DNA of 64,000 nucleotides from Blastocatellia bacterium. GTDB lineage: Bacteria; Acidobacteriota; Blastocatellia; UBA7656. How positions within the stretch are numbered: the stretch's first letter is position 1; every line of letters begins with the position of its first letter. The position numbers and the translations under genes were made by a program. This document shows positions 1,428 through 20,693 of this stretch, one piece after another. The notes beneath the pieces were generated by a model that saw nothing but the letters and a program-made list of their open reading frames with translations, was not told the DNA's origin and did not search any database. Location: positions 160,001-224,000 of the forward strand of contig CAVXWP010000016.1 of the NCBI GenBank assembly GCA_963765495.1, in the 5' to 3' direction.

Positions 1428-1465
1428 AAAGAGGAGTGAGGCGAAATCGTCTCACTCCTCTTTTT
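1428..1465. terminator. Bidirectional intrinsic terminator between convergent genes
   Basis: aaagaggagtgagg-cgaaatcg-tctcactcctcttttt hairpin with a T-tail. Confidence 0.8.
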
Positions 1466-1494
1466 GTATGGCAGCTTGATGCGCCGTCTTTTGC

Positions 1495-3555
1495 CTAGCG
1501 ATTCGGATGGCGCGGGAACTTTACAAAGGGCAATCTTATGCCGCGCACGAACACGCGGTCGGCGCGCATCTCAGGCGGAGACTCAAATCCCGTGCTTCCC
1601 ATGGTGGCTATGATGTCGTCCTGATCCACACCGTCGCCGCTCAACCCTATGCCCCCGGCGAGCTTTCCGTTTTTGTAAAGAGGCACGCTGCCCGGAAATA
1701 TCTGGTTTCCGTTTCCGAGATTGAAGAAAGATGTGCAAGGAAAGGCTACCGCGTTGAGCAGAGACCCGACATCCTGCCCGTTGGAATTGAGAAATCTCAG
1801 GATATTGCCGTAATACTCATCCAGCACGAGGTCGAGTTGCAGTCCATCGTGGAAAGGAGAGAAGTCTTCGATAGGCACGGAAAACGGTCCGTGCTCAGTT
1901 TCGTCAATACCGTCCGGGAAGAAAGGCCGGCTGAGGAATCCCCCCGCGCGGTCTGAAAAGGCCACAGTCCCGTCAAGACCAAGCCCGTCTGCGGCAGCCG
2001 CGTCAACATACCTGCCAAGTCCGGCCTGTCGTAGCGTTCGGCCCGCTACGGGGTTGCTGAAGAAGGCGGCTGTGCGCGCCTTTTGCGCCGAAACGTCGAA
2101 ACCGAATATAGGGGCGTCAATCGTGCTGAATATACCCAGTATGGTTCCATCGACATCAACGACGGTCATATTCACCTGTGTAGGGCTATTGAGCGGCTGG
2201 CGAATAGCCGCGCGCGTGATAAAGGCCTGGGCCGCCGCCTGGGTTATCACCTGCAATACGTCGTTGGCCGTAAGCACCGAGCCGTTCTTGAACGGGAAGA
2301 AGCGATTATCCACTCTGCCGGGCGGCACTTTATCAGGGTCTGCGCCGGGCAATGTGATGACTCTGAACCTGGACGGTTGAGCGGGCAGCACGGTTGCCGG
2401 GGCCAGAGGCAACCTGTCGGGATGAGCCGGGTCGGGGGCGTTTGTGCACGGGCCTATCAAAGAGCCGGGCAGATTATCAAACGCCTTGAGCGTAAGCGAG
2501 GCAGGCATCGGCGTGTTGACGTATGGAAACCTGATGCCGTTTACGACTATCTTGTCTCCGGTGATTGCGTCCGGGGCCTCGAAACCGCGCGATGCCGCCA
2601 CCGCTACCAGTTCTTCAACCGGCTGGTCTTTGTCTGTCGGGTCGGGGTCGAGGCTATAGACTCCGTCGCCCTCGATGCCGATTCCGCCGACCTTCAGCCC
2701 GTTCTTGTAAAGCGGTATCCCGCCCGCGTCTGCCGAGAGTCCAAGAGGCGCTCTGGCATTGACATCGCTACAGAGAAACTGCGAAAACTGCACGCCAAAC
2801 AGCGGGCCCCCGGGCTGAAAGTTTACGCCCGGAGGGAAATGCTCCTGTACGATAAAGCTTGCCGTGCGCGTGCTGAATGCGTGTCCGCCGCTGCTTAGAA
2901 ACGATCCCGTGACAGCCTTCGATATGGCAGCCGAGCAGGAAGGAACCTTGACACCCTCAAGCCCGCAATTGGGGAAATCTCCGAAACACCGGGTTCCTAT
3001 GCCTACCACTGTATTTTTGGGAGTGCCGTTCATGGTGAAGTTGGCCAGAATGTTGCCTTCCGCATCAACGACGGCTATCGAAGCTCTCAACCCGCTTGCT
3101 TCGGCCTGCGCCACGGCCTGCGCGATTATGGTCTTGACATCGCTTACGGTAAGGCGGGTGTCGTCGGCCACGCTCACGGCTATATGAGCCGTCACAAAGG
3201 AGCCGTTGGGGTTTGTGACCTTCACATCCACCCCATCGGCGATGTCGGCTTCGGCCACGCTCTTTATTACTATCTTGGTCTCGCCTTTGATCTTAGCATT
3301 GCTAAAGCTGATCGGCCCCGCCGCATTAGTGAGCGTCAGCGCCGCCCCTTTTTGAAAATTCTCTCCCTTGATCGTCAGAGCGCCTTTCCGTGGATTGAAA
3401 GAAGCTTTGTCGGAGAAGATGAGCGGAGTCGGTCCCGACTGCAACCAGGCAAGTGAATGTCCACTCAGGCACACCATACCAATCGCTAGAAAGCAACTCA
3501 GGACTATCAGCGCTCGTCTTCCTGAGCGTTTGCGCTTTACAACCATGTATCTCAT
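1495..3555 (-). CDS. Exported heme-binding protein with two GlcG/HbpS (Haem_degrading/DUF336)-like domains and an N-terminal Ig/IPT-like module
   Basis: Duplicated module: IAVVDAEG..AISKAVT..GGIPLYKNGLKVGGIGIEGDG and MTVVDVDG..SAQKARTA..GSVPLYKNGKLAGGIGLSGDG. Basic plus hydrophobic leader. Start uncertain (3558/3555/3546). Confidence 0.8.
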   Translation of the reverse strand: MRYMVVKRKRSGRRALIVLSCFLAIGMVCLSGHSLAWLQSGPTPLIFSDKASFNPRKGALTIKGENFQKGAALTLTNAAGPISFSNAKIKGETKIVIKSVAEADIADGVDVKVTNPNGSFVTAHIAVSVADDTRLTVSDVKTIIAQAVAQAEASGLRASIAVVDAEGNILANFTMNGTPKNTVVGIGTRCFGDFPNCGLEGVKVPSCSAAISKAVTGSFLSSGGHAFSTRTASFIVQEHFPPGVNFQPGGPLFGVQFSQFLCSDVNARAPLGLSADAGGIPLYKNGLKVGGIGIEGDGVYSLDPDPTDKDQPVEELVAVAASRGFEAPDAITGDKIVVNGIRFPYVNTPMPASLTLKAFDNLPGSLIGPCTNAPDPAHPDRLPLAPATVLPAQPSRFRVITLPGADPDKVPPGRVDNRFFPFKNGSVLTANDVLQVITQAAAQAFITRAAIRQPLNSPTQVNMTVVDVDGTILGIFSTIDAPIFGFDVSAQKARTAAFFSNPVAGRTLRQAGLGRYVDAAAADGLGLDGTVAFSDRAGGFLSRPFFPDGIDETEHGPFSVPIEDFSPFHDGLQLDLVLDEYYGNILRFLNSNGQDVGSLLNAVAFPCTSFFNLGNGNQIFPGSVPLYKNGKLAGGIGLSGDGVDQDDIIATMGSTGFESPPEMRADRVFVRGIRLPFVKFPRHPNR

Positions 3556-4000
3556 CATAACCTCCAAACCCGGTTTGCTTTGGTGGGTGCACTCAAGCCC
3601 CAACACAAAAGCGAGAAAATGCTTAAGGATTTTTAGCGCGGATTTTTGCCATAAGCTGTGTAACGAATCTTGAAGTCAAACGACCGCTTACTGCACCCAC
3701 TCCCTTGTTCGATTGTTCAAACGCGTTGGTTGATCAGCCTTTCTAGCCAAAAGCCTTTCGTGCAATAAGAGCCGAATATTATCTTCCTTAATACCTGCAC
3801 CGCCCAAATCCGGCTGCTTTTGGGCGGGAAGTATAGCTTATGAAAAAAAGCGTTGCAAGCGAAAAGACGAAACGCGTCTCTTTGGCCCTCGTGCGAGGTC
3901 TTTACACAGCCAAATAGACAAAGAATTTTTCTCAAAAATCTTTTCTCAGTGTTTTTGCGCAAAAGTAGCCTGTTTGGGTATTTGCGACGAACTTGCACTC

Positions 4001-4030
4001 TTGACTTTAGCTCTCCTCACATGTTATACC
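4001..4030 (+). promoter_or_regulatory. Sigma70-type promoter candidate for the cytochrome operon
   Basis: TTGACT followed 18 nt later by TATACC, with an extended -10 TG, in the AT-rich divergent intergenic region. Confidence 0.35.
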
Positions 4031-4196
4031 CTCGCCTATCGCGTTGGTTTTGACGTCAATATAGTGTTTGGATTTGCAAACGTACCGCTAAGAGTTGATT
4101 GGCCAATTGAGACAGGAACAGTTCTAACTAACCCCTTCAGTTTAGACCGCTTTGTTAAAGATAGACTCAGGGTTGGCATCTCAAGTGAGGGATCGA

Positions 4197-6551
4197 ATGA
4201 AACTGAAGCTATTCATCGTTGCACTCTATGGACTGACTATGCTCGCGCTCGCGGCCCTGTCTACGAGCACATTCGCTTATTCGGGACCGGATGAAGCGAT
4301 TCAAAGCGAGGGTGAGCGAGTCGCCGTCAGATTCGACATTACAGGCAGACGCGGGCTGGTCATGTTTGACCACAAGCAACACGAGGCCCTGATAAACCCC
4401 GATCCGATCTTCCCTCACAAGACGCCGACCGGAGTCGCATGCATTGGGTGTCATCACACGGTCAAGGACATCACAGATCCAAAAGATTTTCAAAAATGCA
4501 CAAATTGTCACAAAGACCCCGGCAATCCCATAAACCCCGATGACAAGGAAGGCTTTGACCTGAACTCGATGCAGGCGTTTCACCGCCTCTGCATCAGTTG
4601 TCACAGGGCCTCGGCGGATGAGGATTTCAGAGCCGCAAGCGACAGATTCAAAGCCAAGAACGTGCGATTTGCCAATGTCGAGCGAACCATCAAATTTACA
4701 AAGTGCGGCGAGTGCCACGACCGCGACGCCACCTTTACTCCTGTAGCCGGAGAGGTGCTCGCTCAGCCTTCGCCCGACGATTCGCCCGATTTCGCACTGA
4801 GACTGAATCGCGCTCCGGCCCCGAGCGAAATCTTTAAGACGCCCTCAAATCCGCAGCTTGGATTCTCAGGGCCGTCAAGCATCGACAGACAGGAACAGAC
4901 CTCGGCCGATGCCGTGCAGGTTCCCGACCGCTGGCGCATAGGCTTTCCCGATGACCCGCGCTACAAACGCGGCGCGTGGTATAACCCCTATCGCCAGAAC
5001 ATCCTCAAAGGCGATTACCCGATCTTCAAGCAGCACAATTTCATGGTTCTGACGCTTGAAAGCGAGACCCTCGTCACCGCCAGGCGCATCCCTGTTCCAA
5101 GCAACGTCAGCGCGCAGAGACCCGATTCCGAAGAGTTCTTTGGCCGGGGCGGGCAAATCTTTACCCGGGAAAATTTCGTCGCCTCGATAGAGATTTTCCA
5201 CGGCGACACCTCCTATAAGCCTATTGATTGGAGATTCCGCTTCACGCCAAACTTCAACATCAATCACCTGAACACGCAGGAGAACTCTCTGGTCAACATC
5301 AACCCGGCTTTTGGAGCAAATCGGCTTGACGGCTATGTGGGATTTCAAGAGCTTTTCGGTGAAATGAGGCTCGGAGACACGACCAAACTACTTCCGTTCC
5401 TCAGAGGCCGGGGAAGCCAGAAAGGCGAAAGCCCGTACTTCGACACCACGTTTATCCGAGTGGGTATACAACAGTTCCAGAGCGATTTCCGGGGATTCAT
5501 CTTCAACGATTTCAACCTCGGAGCGCGACTCTTCGGACAGGCGGCAAATAACCACTACAACTTCAACGCGGCCTATTTTTACCTGCTTGAGAAAGACACA
5601 AACAGCGAATTGAACACCCGCGTAAACCTCGGCGAGTTCAGAGACCAGTCGCTGTTTATCGCCAACGTCTACAAGCAGGACACGATCTGGAAAGGCTACC
5701 AGACACAATTCAGCTTTCACTTCAACAACGACCGCCCGAGCAGGCACTTCGACGAAAACGATTTCCTTGTGCGCCCCGCCCTTATCGGAGACGCGGCCCC
5801 GCACGGAATCAAGTCTTACTACCTGGGATTTACGGGCGACGGCCACATAGGAAAGCTCAACATAGATCACGCCTTCTATCAGGTTCTGGGCCACGACACG
5901 CGCAATCCGATTGCCGGGCGCGAGGTTGACATAAACGCTCAGATGGCCGCAGCCGAGCTTTCTATTGATCGAGACTGGCTCAGGTTCAAAGGGTCGCTCT
6001 TCTTCGCTTCGGGCGATAAGAAACCCTTTGACGGCACGGCCCGTGGCTTTGATTCGATTGTGGATTTGCCGGAATTTGCGGGAGGCAAATTCAGCTTCTG
6101 GCAATTCAACCCCATCCCCTTCACAAACACGGCTGTACTTTTGACCCAGCCCGAAAGCCTGCTGCCGAACCTTCGCAGCAGCAAGACCGAAGGACAATCC
6201 AACTTTGTCAACCCCGGCATCTTCATCTACAACGTGGGAATCGAGGCGGAGATGACGCCAAAGCTCCGGGGCATCCTGAACCTGAATTACTCGCATTTTC
6301 ATCACACCGAAACGCTCGAACAACTGGAATTCCAACCGGGCATCCGCCGCGACATAGGGATTGATTACGGCGTTGGGGTACTGTATCGCCCGCTTTTGAA
6401 CGAGAACATCGTCATTGCAGGCGGGTTCTCGTCGCTGATCCCCGGCAAGGGGTTCGAAGACATCTATAGCTCTAACTGTAGCGGACAAAATTGCGGGTTC
6501 GCCACGAAGACCCTGTTTTCGACCTTTGTGAAGGTGAAAGTCATTTACTGA
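4197..6551 (+). CDS. Tetraheme cytochrome c3-like domain fused to an outer-membrane beta-barrel
   Basis: Signal peptide; FDHKQH plus CIGCHH, CTNCH, CISCH, CGECH. Then about 500 aa of amphipathic alternating beta-strands ending in aromatic C-terminal VKVKVIY. Confidence 0.8.
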
Positions 6552-6594
6552 TTTCGACAAGGCGTTGTGTAGTCATTCGCGTTGGGAGATAGAG

Positions 6595-9500
6595 ATGAAC
6601 GTACGTACCAGTAGCGGTCTCAAACTGTCGTTGATCCTGTTGGCAGTCTGCCTTTACACCTTTATCAGTTTCGCCGACACAACCCCCTCTGCGCGGCCTG
6701 CTTCTCCGGCAAAAGAGACCGGCAAGACGAAGGCAACCGATACGAAAGCGACTGAGGCGAAGGCAACTGAGGCGAAGGCAACTGAGGCGAAGGCCGCGGC
6801 GAAGGATTCGGCCAGTAATTCTGCTTCGGCGAAAAAGGATACCGGGAAGGAGTCAAAAGCCCCGGCCTCTGCCGCGCAAAACGCAGGTGGCGCCAAACTC
6901 TGGGGCATGACCAAAGAAGAGGCCGACCGCCGCAGCGCGGGCTGCAATGACTGCCACACCGGTATCGAAGACATGCACAACGGGGCGATAAACCTCGGCT
7001 GCATTGACTGCCACGGCGGCAACGCGGATGTCCGGGCGCAGGGCCTCTCGATGGGGTCAGCCCCCTACAACGAGGCGAAAAAACAGGCGCACGTTCAGCC
7101 GCGCCTCCCCGATCTCTGGAAGACCTCCGCCAATCCCGAACGGTCTTATACAGCCATACTCAGAGAGAGCCAGGAGTATGTTCAGTTCGTCAACCCCGGC
7201 GATCTGCGCGTTGCGCGCCGAAGCTGCGGGGTAGCCGAATGCCACCCCGGCGATGTGCACAACGTCAAGAAGAGCATGATGACTACGGGCAGCATGCTCT
7301 GGGGCGCGGCGCTCTACAACAACGGGTCGTTCCCGTTCAAGGATGCTCAATACGGCGAAAGCTATGACGAGGACGGCAAGCCTCAACGCCTGCAAACGGT
7401 CCCTTCTCCCACGCCCGAAGAGACTCACAAAAAAGGCATTCTCCCCTTTATAGACCCGATGCCCAGATGGGAAGTCTCTCAGATGGGAAACATACTGAGG
7501 ACATTCGAGCGCGGCGGGCGCAAGTCCGCAGAGATAGGCAATCCCCAGCCGGAAGAGCCTCCGGGAAAGCCCACGCAAAACCTTCTGAGCCTCAGAGGGT
7601 TGGGAACCCTGCTCGCCACAGACCCGACCTTTATCGGTCTGCAAAAGACTCGCCTGCTCGACCCGACGCTTAATTTCATGGGGACCAATGACCAGCCGGG
7701 TGACTATCGCTCAAGCGGCTGCACCTCCTGTCACGTCATCTATGCCAATGACCGCGACCCTTACCATTCGGGGCCGTTCGCAAAATACGGCCACACAGGG
7801 TTAAGCGCCAGCGCCGACCCGACCATCCCGAAAAACGAATCGGGGCACCCGATAAAGCACCAGTTTACGCGAGCCATTCCGAGCAGCCAGTGCGTGGTCT
7901 GTCACATGCACCCCGGCACGCTCGTGCTGATGACCTACTACGGCACGATGTGGTGGGATCTTGAGACGGACGGCGAGAAGATGTATCCCAAAGAGCACAA
8001 AGAACTGAGCGCGGAAGAGGAACGAACCATCCTCCAGCGGAACCCGGAAGCGTCGTCGCTCAGGGGTAAATGGGGCGATCCCGAGTTTCTTAGGAACCTC
8101 CGCGAAGAGGTCAATCCCGATCTCAAACACACGCAGTTTGCCGACTTCAACGGTCACGGATGGGTCTATCGAACCACATTCAAAATGGACCGTAAGGGAA
8201 ATTATCTGGATGCCAACGGCGATATCGTCAAGGATGTAACATCGGAAAAACTCAAGAAGGCCGTCGAAGACCCTTATGATGAAAACGCCGATCGCTCAGG
8301 GATTCCCGTTCATCTGAAAGACATTCACCTCGAACGCGGGATGCACTGCATAGACTGTCACTTCCGACGCGACAGCCACGGGAACGGAAATCTCTACAGC
8401 GGGCCTCGCAACGCCATAGAGATTTCATGCGAAGACTGTCACGGCACTATAGACAAACGCGCCGACCCGACATCTCTTGATGCGCGAACATCGGCAGCCG
8501 CGGGCGGCAACCGCATGCTCGAATACCGCAAGGTCTCTCCGCTCGGCGATAACCCGGCCTTAAAGAAAGACAGGTTTTTCAAGAAAGACGGCAAGCTTTT
8601 CCAGCGATCGGCGGTCGAAGCCGACAAGACGTGGGAGGTTAAACAGCTTGTTGACATAATCACGCCGGGCAACCCCGAATACAACGAGAAGGCGGCGCTT
8701 GCCAAGACCGTGCTAAAGGACGGAAAGACCTGGGGCACGGTGCCCGCAGATGATCGCAATCTCGCGCACGCAAACAGCAAGATGACATGTTTTGCGTGTC
8801 ACATGTCGTGGACGCCAAGCTGTTTCGGATGTCACCTGAAGCAGACCGCAAATCAACAGCGCGCGATGCTGCACAACGAAGGCGATGAGGAACTGCGAAA
8901 TTATGTGACCTATAATTTCCAGACCCTCCGCGACGATGTCTTCATGCTTGGGAAAGACGGCACGGTAACAGGCAAACGGTTTGCGCCCATCAGATCGGCA
9001 TGCGCCGTTCTGGTCAGTTCCAGAAACGCCCTTCGCGAATACCTCTACTGGCAGCAGCAGACCGTATCTCAGGAAGGCTACAGCGGGCAGGCGTTCAGTT
9101 CTCACTTCCCGCACACGGTCAGGACCACCGAGACAAAAGGATGCACCGATTGCCATCTGTCTAAGGAAAATGACAACAACGCATACATGGCCATGGTGTT
9201 GATGCAGGGGACGAATTTCTATAACTGGATAGGGCGATACGTCTATGTCGCCACAGGCGAAGGCGGTTATTCGGCCATCGTCGCCACCGAGCGCGAGGAA
9301 CCGCAGGCCGTCATCGGCAGCCATCTGCATAAACTGGCCTTCCCCGAGGAGTACAAGAAACACCAGGAAGACCACGAGGAGCTTCACGAATTTTACGAGC
9401 ATCCGGGCAACGATATAGGCAACTCGCTCAAGCTTTTCGGCAAGGACAAGACCGAAGTGCAAAGCCTTCAGCTTCGCGGCGAATACCTTTATGCCGCGAC

Positions 9501-10944
9501 CGGAGAGGGTGGCTTCCGCATCTATGACGTTGCAAATATCGACCAGAAGGGATTCTCTGAAAGAATGACCACGGCTCCGTTCTCGCCGATGGGACAGAAA
9601 TTCTATATAAAGTCGAAGTACGCGACCGCCATCGCATCGCCGTCAACACTTGCGGTTGACCCGACGGCGACCGTGGGCGAAGTCCTGAAAGAGAAGACGC
9701 GCCGCATCTACCGGCCCGAAAACGACGAAGGAAAGTATCGCGACGACGGGCAGTTGATACCCGCGCTTTACGGCTTCCTCTACGGCACGGACAGGTACGA
9801 GGGGCTTGTGGTCATAGGCAACCCGCTCACCGAAAAGAAAAAAGGACCGGGCGTGGCCACATTGCTCGACGGCGACCCGAACAACAACTTTATCAAGCGC
9901 GCTCTGGCCTTCAATCCTGACGGCCTGCTCAACGGGGCCAACAACATCGTCATCGCGGGTTTCCACGCCTACATAACCTGCGATAAGGGGCTGGTTATCA
10001 TAGACCTTCACGACCCGCTCAAGCCAAAAGTTGTGGGGCAGATCGGAGAGCCGTTTATAAAGAAACCGCGAGCCGTGCAGATACAATTTCGCTACGGTTT
10101 CGTCTGCGACGAGGAAGGCGTAAAGGTCATTGACGTGACCGATCCCGATCACGTTCGTCCGGTCGAAGGCGCGGTCGTGCGGCTCGAAGATGCCCGAAAC
10201 ATCTACCCCGTCAGGACCTATGCTTACGTAGCAGGCGGCAAACAGGGGCTTGTCATTCTCGACATCGAAAACCCGGAAAAGCCGAAACTCGATCAGGTCT
10301 ATAACGCCGACGGGCAGATCAACGATACAAACGATGTGAAGGTGGGCATGACAAACGTGAGCCTGTTTGCTTATCTGGCCGATGGTCACAACGGGTTGCA
10401 GGTAGTTCAACTGATCTCGCCCGAAGATACGCCCGGCCATTACGGGTTCAGCCCCCGCCCGACCCCGCATCTGATCGCGCATCATCACACGCACGAACCG
10501 GCCCTCGCCATAAGCGAAGGGATAGACCGCGACCGCGCCGTGGATGAAAGCGGCAATCAGCTTTCCGTGTTTGGCCGCAGAGGCGCTCGTCCGATGAACC
10601 TCGAAGAACAGCATCGAATGTATATGAAAGACGGGAAGCTCTTTTCCTTCCCCGAAATCAAAGACAGCAACATCAAAAACAACAAAGACATCCGAGACTA
10701 CTTCGGGCCGCCGCCGCTAAACGAGTCGGCCGGTGGCAGCGGGTCGAAACCTGAGGCCCCGAAGGGTACTCAAAAAGAAGAGAAAAAATCGGAAGCCGCT
10801 TCCGGTCACAGTCCGGGACAGGCGCGCCTGGTCGAGCCTGACCAGATCAGGCCAAACGATTCAGCGGAATTGTTCGGGCTTGCGGGTCTGTTTTTGCCGC
10901 TGGCAATAACTCTGTTCCAACAGCGTAGGCGCAACAAAAAGTGA
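6595..10944 (+). CDS. Large exported multiheme cytochrome c (9 CXXCH + 1 CX4CH) with C-terminal LVIVD-repeat beta-propeller and C-terminal membrane anchor
   Basis: CNDCH, CIDCH, CGVAECH, CTSCH, CVVCH, CIDCH, CEDCH, CFACH, CFGCH, CTDCH. Repeats such as [22 protein letters not shown] and [13 protein letters not shown]. Tail [24 protein letters not shown]. Confidence 0.88.
6727..6795 (+). repeat. 15-bp coding tandem repeat (KATEA pentapeptide linker)
   Basis: About four copies of (a)aggcaactgaggcga encoding [10 protein letters not shown]. Confidence 0.85.
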
Positions 10945-11050: not shown

Positions 11051-11608
11051 ATGAGATTGAAGCTGGCTGTTCTTACGATATACGCGCTAGGCGTGATTAC
11101 GCCCGCGGCTTTGATGGCCGGACCCGCTGCCTCCGAGGATCAGGGCAACAGGGACAGCTATCAGAGTAAGAACCCCATTATCATGCTCAACACCAAGGGC
11201 GTGCGCACGCGCGGCCCTGTGCGCTTTGACCACGACGAACACGATTCGCTCATCAATCCCGACCCGAATAATCCTCACCCGGCTAAAGAGGGCGCGGCCT
11301 GCATAGGATGTCATCACACGGAGGACGCGCGCGGCATCGTGCAGTTGTGGAAATGCACTTCGTGCCACAAGACCGAAGGCGGGGGCGACGGGAAATTCAT
11401 AAACACAAAGAACAAGGACTGCGATCAATCGGGCAATCCCAAGAATCGCGAATGCGACGAGGTCTATTTCGAGCGGGCCTTTCACGACAAATGCATAAGC
11501 TGTCATATAGCGTCGAATAAAGAGTTCACCCTGAAGCAACCCGCGCCCGTGACGTGCGGCGGCTGCCACGAGTCTTTAGGAGCGAGCGCGGCCATGAATT
11601 CTAAATAG
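11051..11608 (+). CDS. Periplasmic tetraheme cytochrome c3-like protein
   Basis: Signal peptide; FDHDEH, CIGCHH, CTSCH, CISCH, CGGCH. Paralogous to the N-terminal domain of 4197..6551. Confidence 0.88.
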   Translation: MRLKLAVLTIYALGVITPAALMAGPAASEDQGNRDSYQSKNPIIMLNTKGVRTRGPVRFDHDEHDSLINPDPNNPHPAKEGAACIGCHHTEDARGIVQLWKCTSCHKTEGGGDGKFINTKNKDCDQSGNPKNRECDEVYFERAFHDKCISCHIASNKEFTLKQPAPVTCGGCHESLGASAAMNSK

Positions 11609-11709
11609 CACGAATTCTAAATAGGAAGTTGGACCGGATTTGAGGTGTAATTAGGGGCTGTCCGAATTTTGCTATGACAGGTGGCAGTCATCTGGAGGAT
11701 TACCAGACC

Positions 11710-12693
11710 ATGCTGGGAACGAAAAGGATAGTACTCGCTTTAGGCTGTCTGTTGTTGATGGGGGCGTATTTCGGATTTACGCCGTCCGAGGCTAGTGAAA
11801 CCGACGCGCTCGTTTCCCAGCCCGTTCAGGGCGCGAGGCGAAACGCCAGCTTTCCACACGAAAAACAGAAGCACTCCGAGCTCGATTGCTCGAAATGTCA
11901 CCGGGTCACAAATCAGCCGCCCTTCGATGTCAAATCTCCCACGAGCGGTTCGGTTTATCCGGGGCACGCAAGCTGCGCGGGGTGTCACAACTTTGCCCAG
12001 ATGTTTTTCACGCAGCCGCAGTTTTGCGCCATCTGTCACAACGGAAGAGCCGTATCCCGTTCACAGCCCGCGCTCTTTGACCGCATCCCCAAGGCCGACC
12101 GCCCGAGCGATTTCGGATTGGATTTTTCACACGTCAATCACAAAAAGTCGCTTCCGCAAAACATACAGATAGAGCGATTTGATGTTAAGCCGATCTCTCA
12201 TTTCGGAGACATGTTCCAGCCGGGCGACGCTCCTAAATGCACCGGCTGTCACGAACAGACCCGCCCCCTGCGCGACAACCCGGATGATATGCGGACGGCC
12301 ACGGGGCACACGGCCTGCTTTGTCTGCCACGGCGCAATTCCTTCGAGCGGACGGTTGAAAAGCGTAAAGGAATTTCCTTACATGAACGATTGCCGCGAGT
12401 GTCACGACCTGCGCGGAGGGCGCTCGCCGCATCTGTTTGCAAATTACCATATAATGGATTTCAGGCACGAGGACCACGATTACGACATACGCCCGAGAAC
12501 CAAACAGCAGATCCGCGAGATAAAAGCCGAGGATCGTTTGTGTTCCGAGTGCCACAAGTCTGCGGCTACGGCTGAAAGCCTCAATGCCATAAAGCTGCCG
12601 GAAGAAAATTACTGCAACCAGTGCCATAACGGTAAGATCGGGCTGCCCGATCCTCTGGCTCAGGATGTTATGGATACGCTTAGAAGGCGTTAA
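11710..12693 (+). CDS. Octaheme cytochrome c built of c7/c3-like repeats
   Basis: Signal peptide; 8 CXXCH arranged 3+3+2, each group preceded by an FxH..H segment. ggagg RBS before ATG 11710. Confidence 0.88.
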   Translation: MLGTKRIVLALGCLLLMGAYFGFTPSEASETDALVSQPVQGARRNASFPHEKQKHSELDCSKCHRVTNQPPFDVKSPTSGSVYPGHASCAGCHNFAQMFFTQPQFCAICHNGRAVSRSQPALFDRIPKADRPSDFGLDFSHVNHKKSLPQNIQIERFDVKPISHFGDMFQPGDAPKCTGCHEQTRPLRDNPDDMRTATGHTACFVCHGAIPSSGRLKSVKEFPYMNDCRECHDLRGGRSPHLFANYHIMDFRHEDHDYDIRPRTKQQIREIKAEDRLCSECHKSAATAESLNAIKLPEENYCNQCHNGKIGLPDPLAQDVMDTLRRR

Positions 12694-12713: not shown

Positions 12714-13724
12714 ATGAGAAACGATACAGCGACAAGGCTCAAGCAAATAGTTCTGGCGATAACCGTGACACTTCTCATAGCGGGGGTCGCCTGCCGCAGC
12801 ACACAGCAGAATTTGAATAAACCGCCCGAAAACACAAATGGAAACTCAAACACCGCAGCGCCCGTCGACACAGGCATAATCACGGCCGAATCGCCCGTGG
12901 TCCGCACCTCGACTTTTGACCATTTCAGGGCCGAGCACCGGGTGGGGGCTGATGCGAAGATAAAAGACTGCGCCGTCTGCCATAAGAGAGACACCGCCGC
13001 GCCCTCAGACCCGCAGGTAAAACAGCCGAACCGGGATGGCTGGACGCCTTATCACGATTCTTGCGAGGTCTGTCATAACAAAGAGAATTTCCGCGAAACA
13101 TCGGCAACCGTACTGAAAGAAAAACCCCTCTGCGCGGGGTGCCACAAGGCGGAGGGCAACCAGATCGCCATATCTTCGGGCGGCGGGTTGAAAGGCGTCG
13201 TGATCGATTACCCGAAAGTGGAGACCGAATTCGGCATCAAAGGCGGCGCGAAAGGCTTCTCTCATAAGACTCACATGGACCTGCAAAAGATGGCCAACGA
13301 AGGCCAGGAAGTCAAATGCGAGACCTGTCACCAGTTCGGCAACAGAGGCATTCAGGCCTCCTTCCCGGAGCACCCGAACTGCTTTGGCTGTCACAGCCAT
13401 CAGGCCGGGCAGAAATTCGGCTCCTGCGACGTTTGTCACGTAAAGGCGCAGATGGCCGTAAGCTTCAGCCCCGGGACGGGGACGGCAGCCCGGCTGTATA
13501 ATTTCAGACACAGCAACTCTCATTTGAAGGCGGCAAACTGCGACCGATGTCATAAGACGAGGGAGATAGAAGCTCAGGCTGAAACCGATACGAAACCTCC
13601 TACCGATATAATGCAAATCAGCACGGCGCGAGGACAACGACACACTTCAGCCTGCTGGAGTTGTCACAGCCAGGCGCGTGAAACCGTTTGTACGAAATGC
13701 CATGTCGGGTCCCTGCCATTCTAA
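12714..13724 (+). CDS. Nonaheme cytochrome c lipoprotein (3 x triheme c7-like repeats)
   Basis: Lipobox IAGVA-C; 9 CXXCH in three FxH..H-CXXCH..H..CXXCH..CXXCH units. Confidence 0.88.
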   Translation: MRNDTATRLKQIVLAITVTLLIAGVACRSTQQNLNKPPENTNGNSNTAAPVDTGIITAESPVVRTSTFDHFRAEHRVGADAKIKDCAVCHKRDTAAPSDPQVKQPNRDGWTPYHDSCEVCHNKENFRETSATVLKEKPLCAGCHKAEGNQIAISSGGGLKGVVIDYPKVETEFGIKGGAKGFSHKTHMDLQKMANEGQEVKCETCHQFGNRGIQASFPEHPNCFGCHSHQAGQKFGSCDVCHVKAQMAVSFSPGTGTAARLYNFRHSNSHLKAANCDRCHKTREIEAQAETDTKPPTDIMQISTARGQRHTSACWSCHSQARETVCTKCHVGSLPF

Positions 13725-13885: not shown

Positions 13886-16324
13886 ATGGCGCAAGAACGC
13901 AAAAGCCGGCGCGAGGTACTCGACGCAATCAAAACCATCCCTTCGATAGCCGAGCTTTTATCGGCTCACGAAGGCCATTACGAACACGAGCTTGACCTTG
14001 AAGTCACCGTTTACGGGCGCAATTATGGCGGTAAGAAGGTCGGCCCCTATGTCCGCCTGCTCAGCTACGACCCGGGAGAGGCTGTGATTAAGGAAGGCGA
14101 CTGGGGCGGGAATACATTTTACATTGTAGCCGGCGGCCACGTGGATGTTTTTATAAATGCCCCCGGTCAGGGCGAAGTCAAAGTGGCGGAATTGCCCTCC
14201 GGCACTCAATTCGGAGAGATGAGCGTGCTTGCCGGTGTGCCTCGTAACGCCACGGTTAGGGCGCCTGCCGCGGGCCCCGCACAGGTGCTTGAAGTTCAGC
14301 GCCCGGCCCTGCGCCTGCTTCGCAAACTCCCAAAGTTCAGCGAGAGCCTCGATAAGACATATCGCTCGCACGGCAGAAATGCAACGATCGAAGATCTGAA
14401 GCTTCTCTTCGACATACCCGGAGAGCTTGCCGAGGACATCAAAAACATGTCGCTCTTCAGGGTCTTCTCAAAAAACCACGTCCTCTTCCGCGAAAACGCC
14501 GCCATCGACCGCATCTACGTGATAAAAGAGGGATGGATTCGCCGCAGCAAAGAGACGGGCGAAGTCGAAACGGAAGACTTCCTCGGCAAGGGCTATTGTC
14601 TGGGCGTAGAGGGGTTGTCGCAAAGCGCATCCTGGCCATACACCGTCACATTGCTCGGACGAACCGAGGTGCTTGAAATTTCGCTTCTCAGGCTTCGCCA
14701 GAACCCGGAACTCTTAAATGCCATTGCTAAAGGGATAGGCAGATTCGCGCCGCCGCCTTTTATGGCAAAGGTGAGCGAATTTAAGCCCGAAGTCCGCGAT
14801 AAGATTTTGGCCGCGCAGGAGAGCCTTATAGACACGGGCCTCGTCGATGGAAACAACCTGCTCGTCATGGACATGGACCTCTGCGTCAGATGCGGCAACT
14901 GCTCGCTTGCCTGTCACAAGATTCACGGCCAGTCGCGGCTGCTCAGAAGAGGCGTCCACGTGACCCGGCTCGACCGGCCGCGCCCGAGCGCCGTTCAAAG
15001 CATACTCTCTCCATCTGTCTGCATGCACTGCAAAGACCCCGAATGCCTGACCGGATGCCCTACGGGGTCGATAGGCAGGTTCGGCGCGGGGCAGGTAGAC
15101 ATCGACGCGAAGACCTGCATAGGCTGCGGCGATTGCGCCACCCAGTGCCCTTACAACGCCATCTCGCTGATTCCACGCAAACCGCCCGAAGCGGTAAAGA
15201 GCAACGGCGGATTTGCGGGTAAACTGCGCGATCTTTTAAGGCTTTCGCCCGACCCGCTCCCGCCCCCCGTAGAGACTACGGACAATCTGGTAGCCGTCAA
15301 ATGCAATCTCTGCAATAACACTCCGATAAATCCTCCGGGCAGCAAACGTCAGGCTTATAGCTGTGAAGAGAACTGCCCGACAGGGGCGCTTGCCCGCGTC
15401 AACCCGAGAGAGTATTTCAGCGAAATAGGCAATATCGAAGGGCTGATGTTGATGGATCAGACCCACGCTTACGGGCGCAATATTCATCAGTCCGATCCGC
15501 CAAAACGACTCACTCACATCGCAGGCATTCTGCTGACCGTGCTTCTGACTGCCGGAACCATATTGGGTATAGAACGCTACGGGCTTGGCGAACGTCTCTT
15601 CAGTTTCCTCAACATGCGCTGGATCACGGGGCTTGTCGGCCTCTTAGGCATCGCGGTCGTGATGACCTATCCCGTGCGCCGTCAGATGTACCGTCGCCGC
15701 GCGGGAGCCTTGCGTTACTGGATGCTCATACATTCTTATGTGGGAGTCATCGCGGGGCTTATGATACTGCTGCACGGCGGCACAAGTTCGGGCGGGTTGC
15801 TCACGACGGCGCTCATGATAAGCTGGGACCTCGTGATATTCACGGGTCTTTTTGGCATCTTCGCTTATCTGATCGGGCCTCGGATACTGACAAAGATCGA
15901 AGGCTCACCGCTTCTGATCGACGATCTGAAGACACGGCGCGAAGAGTTGCAAAAAGAGATAGCAACGATAGCAAGCTCGCCAAACGGGCAGCTTCACAAT
16001 CTGGTCAGAAACAAAGTCGTGCCGCACTTTGTCAACTTCGGATATCTGCTCAGACAGTATCTGAAGCGCGAGAACATTGATGAGATGCTTGAATCAGCCA
16101 AAGCCGAATTCAGTTCCGACGCCGCGACGCTTGCCGACGAAAAAGACCGGCGCAAGCTGCTGCGCGCAGTCGAAGCGGCGGCAACCCTGCGCAGAGTCGA
16201 CGCGCTCATCTACATCCATCGCGGTCTGAAGCTCTGGCTCATTCCACACGTAGCCTCAACTTCGCTAATGCTCGCGCTCATGACAGTTCACATAATACAG
16301 GTCATCTATTACGCATCGCGCTAG
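13886..16324 (+). CDS. Tandem cNMP-binding domains + DmsB/NrfC-like 4x[4Fe-4S] domain + multi-TM His-containing membrane domain
   Basis: FGEMSVLAGVPRNATV (phosphate-binding cassette). CVRCGNCSLAC, CMHCKDPECLTGCP, CIGCGDCATQCP, CNLC..CEENCP. TM helices with IHSYVG, LLHGG, PHVAS, TVHII. Confidence 0.85.
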   Translation: MAQERKSRREVLDAIKTIPSIAELLSAHEGHYEHELDLEVTVYGRNYGGKKVGPYVRLLSYDPGEAVIKEGDWGGNTFYIVAGGHVDVFINAPGQGEVKVAELPSGTQFGEMSVLAGVPRNATVRAPAAGPAQVLEVQRPALRLLRKLPKFSESLDKTYRSHGRNATIEDLKLLFDIPGELAEDIKNMSLFRVFSKNHVLFRENAAIDRIYVIKEGWIRRSKETGEVETEDFLGKGYCLGVEGLSQSASWPYTVTLLGRTEVLEISLLRLRQNPELLNAIAKGIGRFAPPPFMAKVSEFKPEVRDKILAAQESLIDTGLVDGNNLLVMDMDLCVRCGNCSLACHKIHGQSRLLRRGVHVTRLDRPRPSAVQSILSPSVCMHCKDPECLTGCPTGSIGRFGAGQVDIDAKTCIGCGDCATQCPYNAISLIPRKPPEAVKSNGGFAGKLRDLLRLSPDPLPPPVETTDNLVAVKCNLCNNTPINPPGSKRQAYSCEENCPTGALARVNPREYFSEIGNIEGLMLMDQTHAYGRNIHQSDPPKRLTHIAGILLTVLLTAGTILGIERYGLGERLFSFLNMRWITGLVGLLGIAVVMTYPVRRQMYRRRAGALRYWMLIHSYVGVIAGLMILLHGGTSSGGLLTTALMISWDLVIFTGLFGIFAYLIGPRILTKIEGSPLLIDDLKTRREELQKEIATIASSPNGQLHNLVRNKVVPHFVNFGYLLRQYLKRENIDEMLESAKAEFSSDAATLADEKDRRKLLRAVEAAATLRRVDALIYIHRGLKLWLIPHVASTSLMLALMTVHIIQVIYYASR

Positions 16325-16374: not shown

Positions 16375-19300
16375 ATGGCCAAGAACATATTCATCATCAA
16401 AAGGACGGATAAGGATAGCGGCGTTGACGATGTCGTTATCGAAAGCGAAGGCTTAACCATAGGACGGCTCGTCGGTAACGACCTCGTCCTAAACCACAGG
16501 GCCGTGTCCAGAACCCACGCCGGGATAAAAGAGATCAACGGCGAATTCTGGATATTCAATCTCTCAACCTCTAACGGGACGGTGCTAAACGGCCAACTGG
16601 CTGACAAGACGCCGCTCGCCGACGGGGACGTGCTTCAGATAGGCCCTTATATGCTCGTGATTGAATACGGCAAGAACGCGCTCTCGATAATCGTTCAAAG
16701 AGAGATCGAGGTCAATCCGCTCGAGGCATATGGAGCGGCGCAGTCGGCAGGCGCGGACGAAACCGGAAAGACCATGATGATCCAGATACCGGGTCTTGCG
16801 GGCAAAATTCCGGGCGGCACAAAAAGCATCAGAGGCACAGGGCTTCTCGGCAATGTGCTTCCCTCGATGGATCAGGCGGCGCTCGATGTCTTCTGGGAGA
16901 AGAGAAAAAGAGAGGCAGGCAAGATCGCCGAAGTCACGCCGCTTCATCCGAAGGGGGGCGAACGACTCGGGAGAGCCAGAAACAACTGGCGTCCTACGGT
17001 TGATCTGCGGAGGCTGTGGCGCAAGTCTTACTTCTATCTTGGCGCGGCCGTCGTCGTGTTGCTTTCGATTATCGCGATAATCATCTATGAGAGCGCATAT
17101 TCGCCCGGCTCGCTGGCCGACCCGCACGTGCGCGCGATGGATCAGAGCGCGCTCTTTACGCGAAATATCGCCAGCCGCGAAAACGCCAATTCGTGCTCCA
17201 CGTGCCACGGCGTCACAACAGGTATGCTCGACAACTGCATAACCTGTCATACGACTACGACCACGGGCGCGAGCGGCGCGACGAAGGCCGGGTTTTTGCC
17301 CCGCACCCTGATCGCAGGGCACAATAATCAGAACCTCGTATGCACCGACTGCCACATCGAGCATCAGGGGAGAGATGTTACAGCGGGTCTTGTGAGCTAC
17401 CGCCTCTGCTACAACTGTCACAACGGCGTTTACACGATCAAGAACGCGGGCAAGATCGGGCCTGCCGGTTCTGTGCTCCCCATTCCGCACGGCGGCAAGA
17501 CCGGATACACGGAACTGAGCACCGAGACAAAAGGCGGAAAATACTGGCCGGGGCTTTCCGCCGCGAGATGGGAAAAATCTATCGCCCGGTGGAGGGCGAA
17601 AGACCCCAACATCATCGCCGACGCGAAGAGTCTGGAAAACAGCCCCTCAAATCAGCAGTTTCACAAACTGCACCTCGGCGGCATAGGAATAGAAGGCAAG
17701 CAGAACAACCAGATATGCGCCATATGCCACTTCGATCAAAGCGGCAAAAATCTCGACACACAGACCAATTACGGTTTGCACGAAGCGCCGCGCCTGTCCT
17801 GCGCCAAGTGCCATACGGTCTCATACACGGTCGCGGGGGCAGCAAGTCAGGTCCCGGCAAGTTGCGAGACCTGTCATCAACAGCACGGCGCTGACGAAGG
17901 CATCCTCAACACGGCAAAGATCGTAGCCGACCCCGGCAAAGAACAGGAGTTTCTGGCTTCGCTCAACAAACCCGCGGCGGGACTCGAAAGTGGATTCCTG
18001 CCCTCGGCCGGGGCCATTGGAAGCGCCGATGTGATAAGGCAGAACAGAGATGTGGTCAGCCTTTCAAGCGCCGCTTCCAGTTTCGGCGCGCTTCCCTGGT
18101 ACGGGTGGGTGGCGGTCATCGGCATCATCCCCATCGCGGGTCTCGTCTTTATGTTCACCGACACGGCCCGCCGCAAATCTTATTTGAAGACGACTAAAAT
18201 AGAGGTCAAACCCGAGGATGAGGCGGCACTTGCGCTGACGGGTCTGCTCGACCTCGACAAACTGAAAGAGCAGGGACCGGCCTATCCTCACCCGGTCATA
18301 AACCAAATGACGTGCATAGGCTGTCACGCCTGCGTTGATGCCTGCCCTCACGATGTACTGGCAATCGTCAACGGAAAGTCTACGCCCATCGCGCTCGATC
18401 AGTGTATGGAAGACACCGCCTGTCAGGTCGAGTGCCCTACAAGTCCAAAATCCTGCATAGTAGTAAACACCAAGAAAGTGATTCCGCCGCGCAAGGTCCC
18501 GGCTCGTGACGGGCGGTTGGAGACCAACGTGCCGGGCATATATATGACGGGAGACGTTTCGGGTACGCCGCTTATCAAGAACGCCATAAACGAAGGGCGG
18601 AGGGTGATCGATTCCGTCAAGGAAGACCTTGAAAAGAACGGGCGCGCTCCGGGGGCGGATTATGATGTGGCAATCGTAGGATGCGGTCCGGCGGGATTGT
18701 CTGCGACGGTCCTTGCCAAAATAGAGGGGCTGAGTTATATCGCGGTGGAACAGGATCGTCTGGCCGGAATGATTCAGGAAGTCTATCAGGCAGGCAAGTT
18801 TGTCTTTTACACACCCGCCGATAAAGAAGTGGTCGGCGGCGTCCCGCTCCTCCCAGACCCCGACAAGCCCGAAGGAAATCTGAAAGAGAACATGCTCAAG
18901 GGCTGGTTCGACGCGATGATGCAAAACGGCGTGGTTGTAAATGAAGAGGAAGGATGCCGGGCGGTCAAGAGCGAAAACGGGTACTTCGTTCTTTCGACCG
19001 AAAAGGGCAAGTCGAAACAGAAGGTGGAGTACAAGGCTCGCAAGGTGATTCTCTCCATCGGCAATCGCGGAGCACCGATGAAACTCGGCGTTCCGGGCGA
19101 AGACCTAAAGATAACCGTCACGCCTCCGCCACAGATCGCCAATCACTGCCCGAAATGCGGGATGGCCCGCAAAGGCACCCAGCTTTTCTGCGTTCAGTGC
19201 GGGCAGCAACTCCCTTCAAAGACCCTGCCGCCTTTCGAGGACGACAGAGTGCAATACAAGCTCTCTGACCCGAAAGACTATGTCAACCGCAAGTGCATAG

Positions 19301-19674
19301 TCGTGGGCGCGGGCAATTCGGCCATAGAGGTAGCCGTAGGTCTTACAGGGTTTGAGCGCGACGGAGACAAGATCAATTTCACAAGCGACAACGAAGTCAC
19401 TTTGATCGTCCGCTCGGATTTCAAAGGAGACCTCGCTTTAGGAAACAAGATGAACGTCTATGATTGCATAGACTCGGGCCGCATGAAGGCATATTTCGGA
19501 TGCGGGATCAAAGAGGTGCTGCCCGGCGAGGTAGTCATAATGAACGCTCGCACAAAAGAAGAGAAGGCCCGCATCCCGAACGACTATATCTTCGCCCTGA
19601 TCGGTGCCGAAAAACCCATAAAATTCCTCGAAAGCATGGGCGTAAAGATCGGCGCGGAGGCAAAAAAGGGATGA
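16375..19674 (+). CDS. FHA + TM + heptaheme cytochrome c + TM + ferredoxin + permuted FAD/NAD(P)H thioredoxin-reductase-like oxidoreductase with zinc-ribbon insert
   Basis: IGR..VSRTHA..STSNGT (FHA). 7 CXXCH between two TM helices. CIGCHACVDACP/CMEDTACQVECP. GDVSGTPLIKNA precedes YDVAIVGCGPAG; VVGAGNSA; CPKC..CVQC. Confidence 0.85.
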   Translation: MAKNIFIIKRTDKDSGVDDVVIESEGLTIGRLVGNDLVLNHRAVSRTHAGIKEINGEFWIFNLSTSNGTVLNGQLADKTPLADGDVLQIGPYMLVIEYGKNALSIIVQREIEVNPLEAYGAAQSAGADETGKTMMIQIPGLAGKIPGGTKSIRGTGLLGNVLPSMDQAALDVFWEKRKREAGKIAEVTPLHPKGGERLGRARNNWRPTVDLRRLWRKSYFYLGAAVVVLLSIIAIIIYESAYSPGSLADPHVRAMDQSALFTRNIASRENANSCSTCHGVTTGMLDNCITCHTTTTTGASGATKAGFLPRTLIAGHNNQNLVCTDCHIEHQGRDVTAGLVSYRLCYNCHNGVYTIKNAGKIGPAGSVLPIPHGGKTGYTELSTETKGGKYWPGLSAARWEKSIARWRAKDPNIIADAKSLENSPSNQQFHKLHLGGIGIEGKQNNQICAICHFDQSGKNLDTQTNYGLHEAPRLSCAKCHTVSYTVAGAASQVPASCETCHQQHGADEGILNTAKIVADPGKEQEFLASLNKPAAGLESGFLPSAGAIGSADVIRQNRDVVSLSSAASSFGALPWYGWVAVIGIIPIAGLVFMFTDTARRKSYLKTTKIEVKPEDEAALALTGLLDLDKLKEQGPAYPHPVINQMTCIGCHACVDACPHDVLAIVNGKSTPIALDQCMEDTACQVECPTSPKSCIVVNTKKVIPPRKVPARDGRLETNVPGIYMTGDVSGTPLIKNAINEGRRVIDSVKEDLEKNGRAPGADYDVAIVGCGPAGLSATVLAKIEGLSYIAVEQDRLAGMIQEVYQAGKFVFYTPADKEVVGGVPLLPDPDKPEGNLKENMLKGWFDAMMQNGVVVNEEEGCRAVKSENGYFVLSTEKGKSKQKVEYKARKVILSIGNRGAPMKLGVPGEDLKITVTPPPQIANHCPKCGMARKGTQLFCVQCGQQLPSKTLPPFEDDRVQYKLSDPKDYVNRKCIVVGAGNSAIEVAVGLTGFERDGDKINFTSDNEVTLIVRSDFKGDLALGNKMNVYDCIDSGRMKAYFGCGIKEVLPGEVVIMNARTKEEKARIPNDYIFALIGAEKPIKFLESMGVKIGAEAKKG

Positions 19675-19871: not shown

Positions 19872-20642
19872 TTGAAAGTCAGACTTCTGCCGAGCAGCGC
19901 GGGGCGACATTCCCAGGAGCAGTCGCTAACCAGTTTCCTCATAAACGATCTGGTTTCGATTGACGGCGGCAGCATTGGATTTGCCCTGACGCCACCTGAA
20001 ATGGGCAAGGTCCGAGACATCGTGATAACGCATACGCACAGCGATCATCACGCATCTTTGCCTATTTTCATAGCCGAAGCATTCACAATGCTCGACGGAC
20101 CCGTTACGATTTACGGCCTGCCGGAAGTGATCTCGGCGTTGAGGGAGTTTATATTCAACGACAAAATATGGCCGAACTTCGAAAAGATTCCGCTTATGAA
20201 CGGCAAATCTTCTACGATAGAGTTTCGCGTCTTAGAGCCGAGAGAGACGATCGAGATTGCGGGGCTGCGCGTGACGCCAATACCCGTAAATCACCTTGTT
20301 CCGACTATCGGATTGCTGGTCGAGGACGACGGGGCCGCCGTGATCTTCACCTCCGATACTTACGTGACGGACGAGATATGGCAGCGCGGCAGAGAGAGCG
20401 AAGAGCTAAAAGCCGTCTTTGTTGATATTTCATTTCCGAACGAGCTTGGCAAACTTGCTGCCGACTCCAAGCACCTGACCCCTGAGTTGCTTGCCGGAGA
20501 GCTGAAAAAACTGAACCGGGATGCCGAAGTCTTTGCGGTCCATATCAAGCCTACCAACAGGGATCAGGTAATTCACCAGCTTGGCCTGCTCGACAATCCG
20601 CTTGTTTCAGTGGCCGAAATCGGGCGGGTTTATGAGTGGTAA
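19872..20642 (+). CDS. 3',5'-cyclic-nucleotide phosphodiesterase (class II / metallo-beta-lactamase fold)
   Basis: THTHSDHH metal motif, FNDKIWPNF, PVNHLVP, FTSDT, SKHLTP, VHIKP. TTG start after ggagg. Confidence 0.85.
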   Translation: MKVRLLPSSAGRHSQEQSLTSFLINDLVSIDGGSIGFALTPPEMGKVRDIVITHTHSDHHASLPIFIAEAFTMLDGPVTIYGLPEVISALREFIFNDKIWPNFEKIPLMNGKSSTIEFRVLEPRETIEIAGLRVTPIPVNHLVPTIGLLVEDDGAAVIFTSDTYVTDEIWQRGRESEELKAVFVDISFPNELGKLAADSKHLTPELLAGELKKLNRDAEVFAVHIKPTNRDQVIHQLGLLDNPLVSVAEIGRVYEW

Positions 20643-20693
20643 CTGACGGGTGGTAATTGCCCCAGACCGGTCGCCGCAGAATTTGAAGATGTT

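Follow-up and report, generated by a model that had tools for sequence, protein, structure and literature searches.

Outer-membrane barrels associated with c-type cytochromes have been described in several forms. Cyc2 is monoheme with a predicted barrel of 16 strands, while MtrAB-type conduits consist of a 26-stranded barrel with an inserted decaheme cytochrome (PMC8406198, PMC13741234; these and the other sources cited were accessible in part and are drawn on to that extent). In the Geobacter extHIJKLMNOPQS cluster, which combines multiheme cytochromes with a cytochrome b, the porin has been proposed to act as a solute channel or anchor (PMC5877670). PCC4, described by He et al. (2017), contains a porin, periplasmic 4-, 5- and 10-heme cytochromes, a PF13247 iron-sulphur gene and a protein with five transmembrane (TM) helices (PMC5566968), and metagenome-assembled genomes from ghost rock hold 11 'Group 1 PCC' clusters with a 4–5 kb decaheme gene beside a ~20-strand porin, 7 of them with an FNR-like gene, in hosts including Acidobacteriota, Planctomycetota and KSB1 (PMC13264449). 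Here we describe a gene in which a tetraheme cytochrome c3 is joined in one chain to a predicted 18-stranded barrel, found in a 64,000-nucleotide stretch of a Blastocatellia bacterium genome (GenBank assembly GCA_963765495.1, contig CAVXWP010000016.1, positions 160,001–224,000; hereafter the window, numbered from its first letter). The initial annotation of this gene proposed a multiheme porin-cytochrome unlike either Cyc2 or MtrAB; the single chain and the distinct architecture stand, but the conduit with hemes in the barrel lumen that it implied is unlikely.

The CXXCH motifs of the fusion protein lie at residues 82, 101, 132 and 170, and residues 66–174 score 35.7 bits (E 1.2e-8) with the Pfam family Cytochrom_CIII (PF02085), whose cut-off is 22.9; cytochromes c3 are also its top sequence matches in the PDB. 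The ligands follow the order FDH59xxH62, C82xxCH86H87, C101xxCH105, H129, C132xxCH136, C170xxCH174, and all 16 Cys and His heme ligands, including the distal H59, H62, H87 and H129, are invariant in 95/95 fused rows (alignment A2), so the c3-type layout of four motifs initially noticed is confirmed. Fold searches with the full-length model surfaced no cytochrome match, the barrel filling the match list when this model, rather than the c3 alone, is the query. A homolog search with residues 235–784 passed 7,957 of 8,000 scored candidates, and among the best 120 of these 109 carry four CXXCH, one partial sequence carries three, six are N-terminally cut fragments and four are full-length but unfused. 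Organisms named among these 120 matches are Blastocatellia or Acidobacteriota, and the fusion proteins bear the plain NCBI label 'cytochrome c3 family protein'. The c3-barrel fusion is a genuine, conserved architecture, and because 109/120 best homologs share it, neither a missed stop nor a misassembly is involved. Sequencing or assembly errors that join two genes are known in the databases for this family (P0281, P0286, P0287, P0288 and P0289, with truncated barrels or an internal signal peptide), but those 109 homologs and six GTDB genomes all show this fusion in frame behind a single signal peptide, which leaves such an error a negligible chance here; the independent genomes already refute it.

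The Pro-rich linker remarked on at the outset is borne out, with 10 Pro in 69 residues. Across the 109 homologs it ranges from 43 to 86 residues (median 68, mean Pro content 19%) and is the least conserved part of the protein, with a column identity of 0.26–0.35; the c3 reaches 0.49 and the barrel 0.71. AlphaFold2 modelling of the C-terminal 550 residues alone, from a 105-row alignment, gave 18 long strands (246 strand residues) with a predicted local distance difference test score (pLDDT) of 92 and a predicted template modelling score (pTM) of 0.91. The top Foldseek match of the barrel is AlgE (E 6e-18), and a wide structural search also placed AlgE first, with a Z-score of 26.8 and a root-mean-square deviation of 3.0 Å over 367 of AlgE's 421 residues, followed by OpdQ (Z 25.1), OccD2 (Z 24.7) and Campylobacter MOMP (Z 23.9). 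In a mean-field coevolution analysis of 345 rows (effective number 190), 52 of the top 150 pairs join neighbouring strands where 3.4 are expected, the strand labels being those of the AlphaFold model; these 150 pairs cover 16/18 strand junctions, including the b1–b18 closure, and the top 275 cover 18/18. Pairs involving the N-segment are depleted, and coevolution supports the strand order only, not a plugged lumen. The long β region ending in Tyr that the initial annotation took for a transmembrane barrel, and on which its reading hung, is thus upheld by model, AlgE match and coevolution together, and the strand count it had left to structure prediction comes out at 18. A simple hydropathy alternation test was passed in 10/18 strands. 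No Pfam or NCBIfam model matches the barrel, and a sequence search of the PDB brought up no relative even when run with a 105-row profile at E 10; the alginate export family PF13372 did not match the fusion protein at E 0.1 and appeared below threshold in 2/64 relatives. The best-conserved parts of the barrel are its extracellular loops (alignment A1).

Several observations bear on whether the c3 sits in the lumen or in the periplasm. By the standard barrel formula, an empty barrel of 18 strands leaves a free width of ~22 Å, compared with ~37 Å for 26 strands, and a c3 domain is ~30–40 Å across. The full-length AlphaFold model has a pTM of 0.74, compared with 0.91 for the barrel alone, a linker pLDDT below 50 and no confident packing of c3 against barrel, as expected for an undocked c3 domain. 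In AlgE, according to the accessible description, L3, L7, L8 and T5 fill the lumen to leave ~5 Å, and both termini are periplasmic (PMC4118822); since the 367 aligned AlgE residues outnumber the 246 strand residues of our model, loops match as well as strands. The barrel N-terminus, and hence the c3, would therefore face the periplasm. Relatives carry a variety of modules in the same N-terminal slot (CarboxypepD_reg in 8 of the 64 scanned with Pfam, SH3 in 2, and fn3, HEAT, SPOR and c3 in 1 each, the rest without a family), and as such modules are typically periplasmic we count them for a periplasmic c3. It is therefore unlikely that hemes occupy the lumen, given its width, the loop-filled lumen of AlgE as the nearest fold and the lack of confident docking, and the modelled c3 probably hangs in the periplasm, being too large for the barrel.

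The barrel family has 1,544 representatives at 50% identity; among the best 150, 77 look full-length, and 3 of these 77 carry CXXCH. GTDB genomes contain at least 588 relatives among 598 stretches, and in the best 80 loci, which we analysed, six barrels are fused. Homologs of the barrel alone thus mostly lack the c3, the proportion that the initial annotation had suggested checking, and as judged from sequence the c3 is an accessory of one Blastocatellia clade, a derived state. In a FastTree phylogeny of 84 barrel rows, 19 of the 20 fused rows group as a single clade (support 96) nested among unfused barrels that are mainly from Blastocatellia, and none of the 19 has lost the c3. The remaining fused row, P0161, is long-branched and falls elsewhere, at a cost of two changes; its c3 domain falls within the group of fused domains, and its barrel carries a shortened version of the insert that the clade has in periplasmic turn 2. 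A second fusion origin through this row is disfavoured on these grounds, and a single origin is preferred. The turn-2 insert is older than the fusion, because unfused Blastocatellia sisters share it. Over 128 columns the fused c3 shares 38% identity (E 6e-24) with the free c3 encoded further downstream, and in a 54-row c3 tree the 23 fused domains form one group (95/90), sister to seven free c3s of fusion loci. Most simply, the free c3 gene of the cluster would have been duplicated and the copy, signal peptide included, placed ahead of the barrel sequence; a free c3 gene is kept in the window and in all six fusion loci. Among 22 longer barrel relatives, four join the barrel to decaheme sequence and one joins HbpS to the barrel (P0281, P0286–P0289); with their missing strands, unalignable spacers or internal signal peptide we set these aside as probable frameshift or assembly joins, and the 22 add no new cytochrome-barrel fusion. 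Outside Acidobacteriota, the range given here is drawn from a few loci, 13 plasmid records and Atlas labels. Three loci titled 'uncultured Clostridia bacterium' (L001, L003, L004) have the fused barrel cluster and nest among Blastocatellia sequences, and another (L009) is titled Actinomycetota; these titles are probably mislabelled or misbinned, as such groups mostly have no outer membrane.

The initial annotation had overlooked the fixed partner of the barrel, the adjoining decaheme protein, whose gene comes next in 61/62 loci with enough downstream sequence. This 1449-residue protein (4.35 kb gene) has nine CXXCH motifs and one invariant CX4CH, and 16/52 long homologs have a C-terminal TM tail, which fits a periplasmic location. 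At the 3' end of the window copy (10860–10944, + strand) are an optional hydrophobic helix and a basic tail, without an NCBIfam sorting-signal match, and KATE(A/T) repeats occur in the linker after its signal peptide (6720–6800, + strand). Assignment of the decaheme protein to an enzyme family was rejected, the matches being short motifs and the Atlas matches generic multiheme clusters. A predicted complex between the barrel and residues 106–555 of the decaheme protein, about a third of the partner, weakly supports an association, with a score of 0.50 against 0.00 for the best of three controls; the runs share 23% or more of their contacts, the partner pLDDT is 52 and no interface was obtained. 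The mark used for this score is reached by 116/157 solved complexes and 2/215 mismatches, and at 0.60 or below by 18/157 and both mismatches. Of the 48 loci that extend 3 kb or more to either side, 34 have an HbpS-like gene near the barrel. In Sphingomonadaceae, HbpS-like, heme-free barrel and decaheme genes occur together on plasmids or chromids (13 records matched, 2 loci read), the decaheme gene adjoining the barrel in both loci read. Core genes of the cluster are present in Sphingobium and Sphingopyxis, which we take to be aerobes. A promoter scan found no more sites than shuffled sequence (9 against 10.2), and the interval between the fusion and decaheme genes lacks a terminator-like site on the + strand.

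Table 1 Features of the c3-barrel fusion gene and of its cluster in the window
Feature	Position	Strand	Remarks
Exported protein, three HbpS/GlcG-like heme-binding stretches	1495..3606	-	PF03928; divergently transcribed
c3-barrel fusion gene, 784 aa, single open frame, last residue Tyr	4197..6551	+	Homologs share start M-[KR]LKL
Putative Sec signal peptide, residues 1–27	4197..4277	+	From basic-hydrophobic-AFA pattern; resembles N-terminus of free c3 gene
Class III tetraheme cytochrome c3 domain, bis-His layout	4359..4721	+	PF02085 above cut-off; 8 Cys and 8 His invariant, 95/95
Pro-rich, poorly conserved linker, 69 aa	4722..4925	+	Low column identity; pLDDT <50 in part
Pre-barrel segment DRWR..G.P...Y.Q..LKGD.PI	4926..5036	+	Conserved family-wide (alignment A1); model pLDDT 78–93
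18-stranded AlgE/OccD-fold outer-membrane barrel, Tyr end	5037..6548	+	AlphaFold, Foldseek, structural search, coevolution
Insert of ~20 aa in periplasmic turn 2	5376..5432	+	Common to fused clade and unfused Blastocatellia sisters
Long conserved loop 7, SGD..P.D..A.GFD...GQSNFVNPG	6009..6218	+	Putatively in lumen, as in AlgE
Decaheme cytochrome, LVIVD β-propeller, signal peptide, C-terminal hydrophobic tail	6595..10944	+	Constant neighbour of barrel
Free tetraheme c3, closest paralogue of fused domain	11051..11608	+	Sister clade
Exported 8-heme c7-like cytochrome	11674..12693	+	
Exported 9-heme c7-like cytochrome, lipobox-like signal GVAC	12714..13724	+	
Two cNMP-binding domains, 4Fe-4S domain (PF13247), 5-TM domain with two WX3HX13H motifs	13886..16324	+	
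FHA, TM, 7-heme periplasmic domain, TM, 4Fe-4S, FAD/NAD(P)H oxidoreductase	16375..19674	+	
Class II cAMP phosphodiesterase-like gene and FHA-GAF-nucleotide cyclase gene	19872..22319	+	After cluster

Downstream of the decaheme gene the window encodes further redox proteins (Table 1), giving the cluster a total of ~42 c-type heme motifs together with an inner-membrane cytochrome b. The 5-TM domain attached to the cyclic nucleotide (cNMP)-binding and 4Fe-4S domains would be a diheme cytochrome b of the ferric-reductase type, from its two WX3HX13H motifs, a motif described for PCC4 (PMC5566968, available in part); both motifs occur in 11/16 long homologs from the loci, and in Sphingobium. The eighth CXXCH of the 7-heme oxidoreductase belongs to its 4Fe-4S motif. 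A cyclase homolog is also found near the barrel in locus L070. Polysaccharide synthesis and alginate genes are absent among the neighbours in the window, which are cytochrome, redox or cAMP genes. Following the phosphodiesterase and cyclase genes are two tandem MscS channels with C-terminal cNMP-binding domains, a cAMP-gated channel pair (22417–25509, - strand), and next to these an oxidative pentose-phosphate cluster (25502–40320, - strand; glucokinase, OpcA, G6PD, two 6PGD, 6PGL, a transaldolase-PGI fusion and transketolase), which could serve the redox system as a source of NADPH. At the other end of the window, a truncated (group 1-like) hemoglobin whose N-terminus has a hydrophobic, signal-like stretch (810–1325, + strand) lies behind a DUF4331 gene (2–370, + strand), and DUF4331 homologs occur near the barrel in 7/80 loci (L028, L032, L042, L072, L075, L076 and L079). 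In one Sphingobium locus (L081, positions 1–11344), CHAT, CHASE2 and ShlB/FhaC genes and a gene for a large putative secreted protein precede the cluster, and the FAD, iron-sulphur, cNMP and cytochrome b domains are arranged unlike those of the window.

Taking together the c3, linker and 18-strand barrel, the one clade of fusions, the duplicate nature of the c3 and the linkage of the barrel to the decaheme and usually the HbpS-like gene, we propose an AlgE/OccD-fold solute channel or scaffold with a tethered periplasmic c3 shuttle that feeds a decaheme enzyme, a proposal whose chances we put at about even. Electrons from cytoplasmic NAD(P)H would pass through FAD and 4Fe-4S to the cNMP-gated diheme cytochrome b, and from there along the 7-, 8-, 9- and 4-heme periplasmic carriers. 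The barrel would be a narrow channel or scaffold on which the periplasmic decaheme oxidoreductase docks, with the tethered c3 providing the last hand-over to this enzyme in the fused clade. The decaheme enzyme may then reduce a small solute that enters through the pore, candidates being a chelated metal, heme iron, a quinone or an oxyanion of N, S or Se. Such an arrangement would share the topology of Cyc2, in which the substrate comes to a periplasmic heme, and the logic of the Geobacter ExtI cluster, unlike the wire of MtrAB. The barrel keeps its decaheme and usually its HbpS-like partner even in the aerobes where it is heme-free. A number of points weigh against this proposal. LVIVD propellers have been described as cell-surface proteins, whereas we place the decaheme protein in the periplasm, and the conserved extracellular loops of the barrel could mean docking on the outside. 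Matches of the decaheme protein to known enzymes (octaheme nitrite reductase, NrfA/NrfB and YncE) are confined to short heme motifs, and its complex prediction with the barrel scores weakly, one of the three runs giving 0.02. In the coevolution analysis, pairs between loop 7 and the strands are not enriched (15 seen, 17.4 expected) and loop 3 pairs are not significant (p 0.1–0.2). Finally, cytochromes c3 in general have hemes of low potential, and it is from this general property and from the FAD/NAD(P)H domain that the direction of electron flow is deduced.

The same genes could instead form a conduit across the outer membrane, in which either the c3 closes the barrel at its periplasmic mouth or a section of the decaheme protein runs through it, and a surface-exposed decaheme/propeller passes electrons to minerals or humic matter, as a multiheme Cyc2-like or Mtr-like wire. 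The many heme motifs beside an inner-membrane cytochrome b in one cluster, the conserved extracellular loops and the modelling of Cyc2's small cytochrome as a plug at the periplasmic opening would all agree with this, and papers, as far as they were accessible, interpret similar clusters as extracellular-electron-transfer systems; the barrel-decaheme complex score also points this way, though at its level a pass is likelier to be false than true. The barrel has, however, 18 strands instead of the 26 of MtrAB, a narrow free width and an AlgE/OccD-type fold with a loop-filled lumen, the full-length model shows no confident c3 docking, 74/77 full-length representatives are without c3, and the core is found also in Sphingobium and Sphingopyxis, presumably aerobes, so that we consider a conduit unlikely. 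We are equally doubtful of its strongest form, namely that this is the first single-chain multiheme porin-cytochrome gateway, with the c3 docked under the barrel and, together with the decaheme/propeller protein, completing a cAMP-gated route from NAD(P)H to the outside in Blastocatellia. If true, the gateway would be a third class of outer-membrane conduit, with a heme-free form in hundreds of species including cultured aerobes.

A role in sensing, where an external ligand or redox state is perceived by the barrel, HbpS-like and decaheme proteins and signalled along the heme chain to the cNMP/FHA/cyclase module, is suggested by the cNMP-binding and FHA domains inside redox proteins, by the phosphodiesterase, cyclase and two MscS-cNMP genes that follow, by the CHASE2, CHAT, metallophosphoesterase and TPS genes flanking the Sphingobium cluster, and by the frequent HbpS-like neighbour. 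Against it stand the large cost of ~42 hemes for a sensor, the presence of cyclase homologs within 10 kb of the barrel in only 1/80 loci, and a Sphingopyxis locus in which the core genes are present but no cNMP module lies within 15 kb on each side; we find this idea somewhat less convincing still. It is also conceivable, if rather improbable, that a duplicated c3 was captured in a tolerant N-terminal slot and is merely anchored there, without functional coupling to the pore. The slot does accept many unrelated domains or low-complexity sequence, the free c3 is retained in the window and all six fusion loci and the linker is variable, but a passenger would hardly account for heme ligands that are invariant in 95/95 rows, for the absence of loss among the 19 rows of the fused clade, or for a linker length kept within 43–86 residues. 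The channel or scaffold with a tethered c3 shuttle therefore remains the reading we prefer.

Multiheme fusions of this kind are apparently unreported: no published description of a barrel joined to a multiheme cytochrome came to light, in a literature coverage that leaves out most subscription journals. A peat preprint (10.64898/2026.05.27.727921) describes porin-multiheme clusters in Terriglobia, and 'fused' and 'Blastocatellia' are absent from its main text in the form accessible to us; the parent cluster seems already to have been noted in print. A conserved tetraheme fusion on an unrelated barrel, set against the single-heme Cyc2, shows an independent origin, and it ties a barrel family without a Pfam or NCBIfam model physically to periplasmic electron transfer. 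Such clusters have been called extracellular-electron-transfer conduits from gene inventory alone; the AlgE-type fold calls for caution here, as they may be solute channels that supply an enzyme in the periplasm. With the core genes present in cultured strains of Sphingobium and Sphingopyxis, the question is testable now. On present evidence the fusion is less a new wire than a pointer to a widespread, uncharacterised redox system with cultured hosts.

Compared with known systems, the fusion protein is most like Cyc2/Cyt572 in its plan, as far as the accessible descriptions go, being one chain with a signal peptide, an N-terminal periplasmic c-type cytochrome and a C-terminal barrel too narrow for a heme wire. 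It differs in having four bis-His c3 hemes where Cyc2 has one, 18 AlgE-type strands from model and coevolution where 16 are predicted for Cyc2, a long flexible linker and a fixed decaheme partner, and in that the c3 is optional in the barrel family. With Desulfovibrio-type cytochromes c3 it shares the four hemes, the bis-His order and PF02085, whereas all its motifs are CX2CH, its host is a Blastocatellia-like acidobacterium and the domain is tethered to an outer-membrane protein. The barrel has the 18-strand fold, long loop 7 and C-terminal aromatic residue of AlgE, OccD (OprD) and Campylobacter MOMP, from which it is set apart by an identity of 9–13%, the missing PF13372 match, the lack of alginate genes nearby and its redox context.

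At the level of the cluster, MtrAB, MtoAB, PioAB and Geobacter Pcc resemble the window in a barrel that adjoins a decaheme gene, in periplasmic multiheme carriers and in an inner-membrane module linked to quinone or NAD(P)H; the 26-strand barrel with an inserted decaheme contrasts with the 18 strands and the 1449-residue decaheme with a β-propeller found here, whose sole profile match to a chain we take to be MtrA-like covers a short heme stretch (E 0.012). The Geobacter ext cluster likewise contains a porin among multiheme and cytochrome b genes, and the decaheme protein partly matches ExtM and ExtN, but scores far under their cut-offs (84.2 of 800 and 24.1 of 200 bits, respectively); ExtI, as described in the available text, resembles phosphate porins and no cytochrome is fused there. 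PCC4 has in common with the window the PF13247 iron-sulphur protein and a 5-TM protein with two WX3HX13H motifs, a porin and 4- and 10-heme cytochromes. In place of its set the window has proteins of 4 (fused), 10, 4, 8, 9 and 7 hemes and no 5-heme cytochrome, the SGXXG on TM4 is absent, with TGLFG in the same helix, and the iron-sulphur and membrane domains are fused to cNMP domains, PCC4 being set apart here by its accessible description and not by porin sequence. The 4.35 kb decaheme gene with 10 motifs, the 18-strand barrel and the FAD oxidoreductase of the window correspond closely to the ghost-rock Group 1 PCC, whose account, in the portion available, is a gene inventory that describes no fused heme domain, fold or Blastocatellia. 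Group 1, compared by description rather than sequence, is very probably the parent cluster of the fusion reported here.

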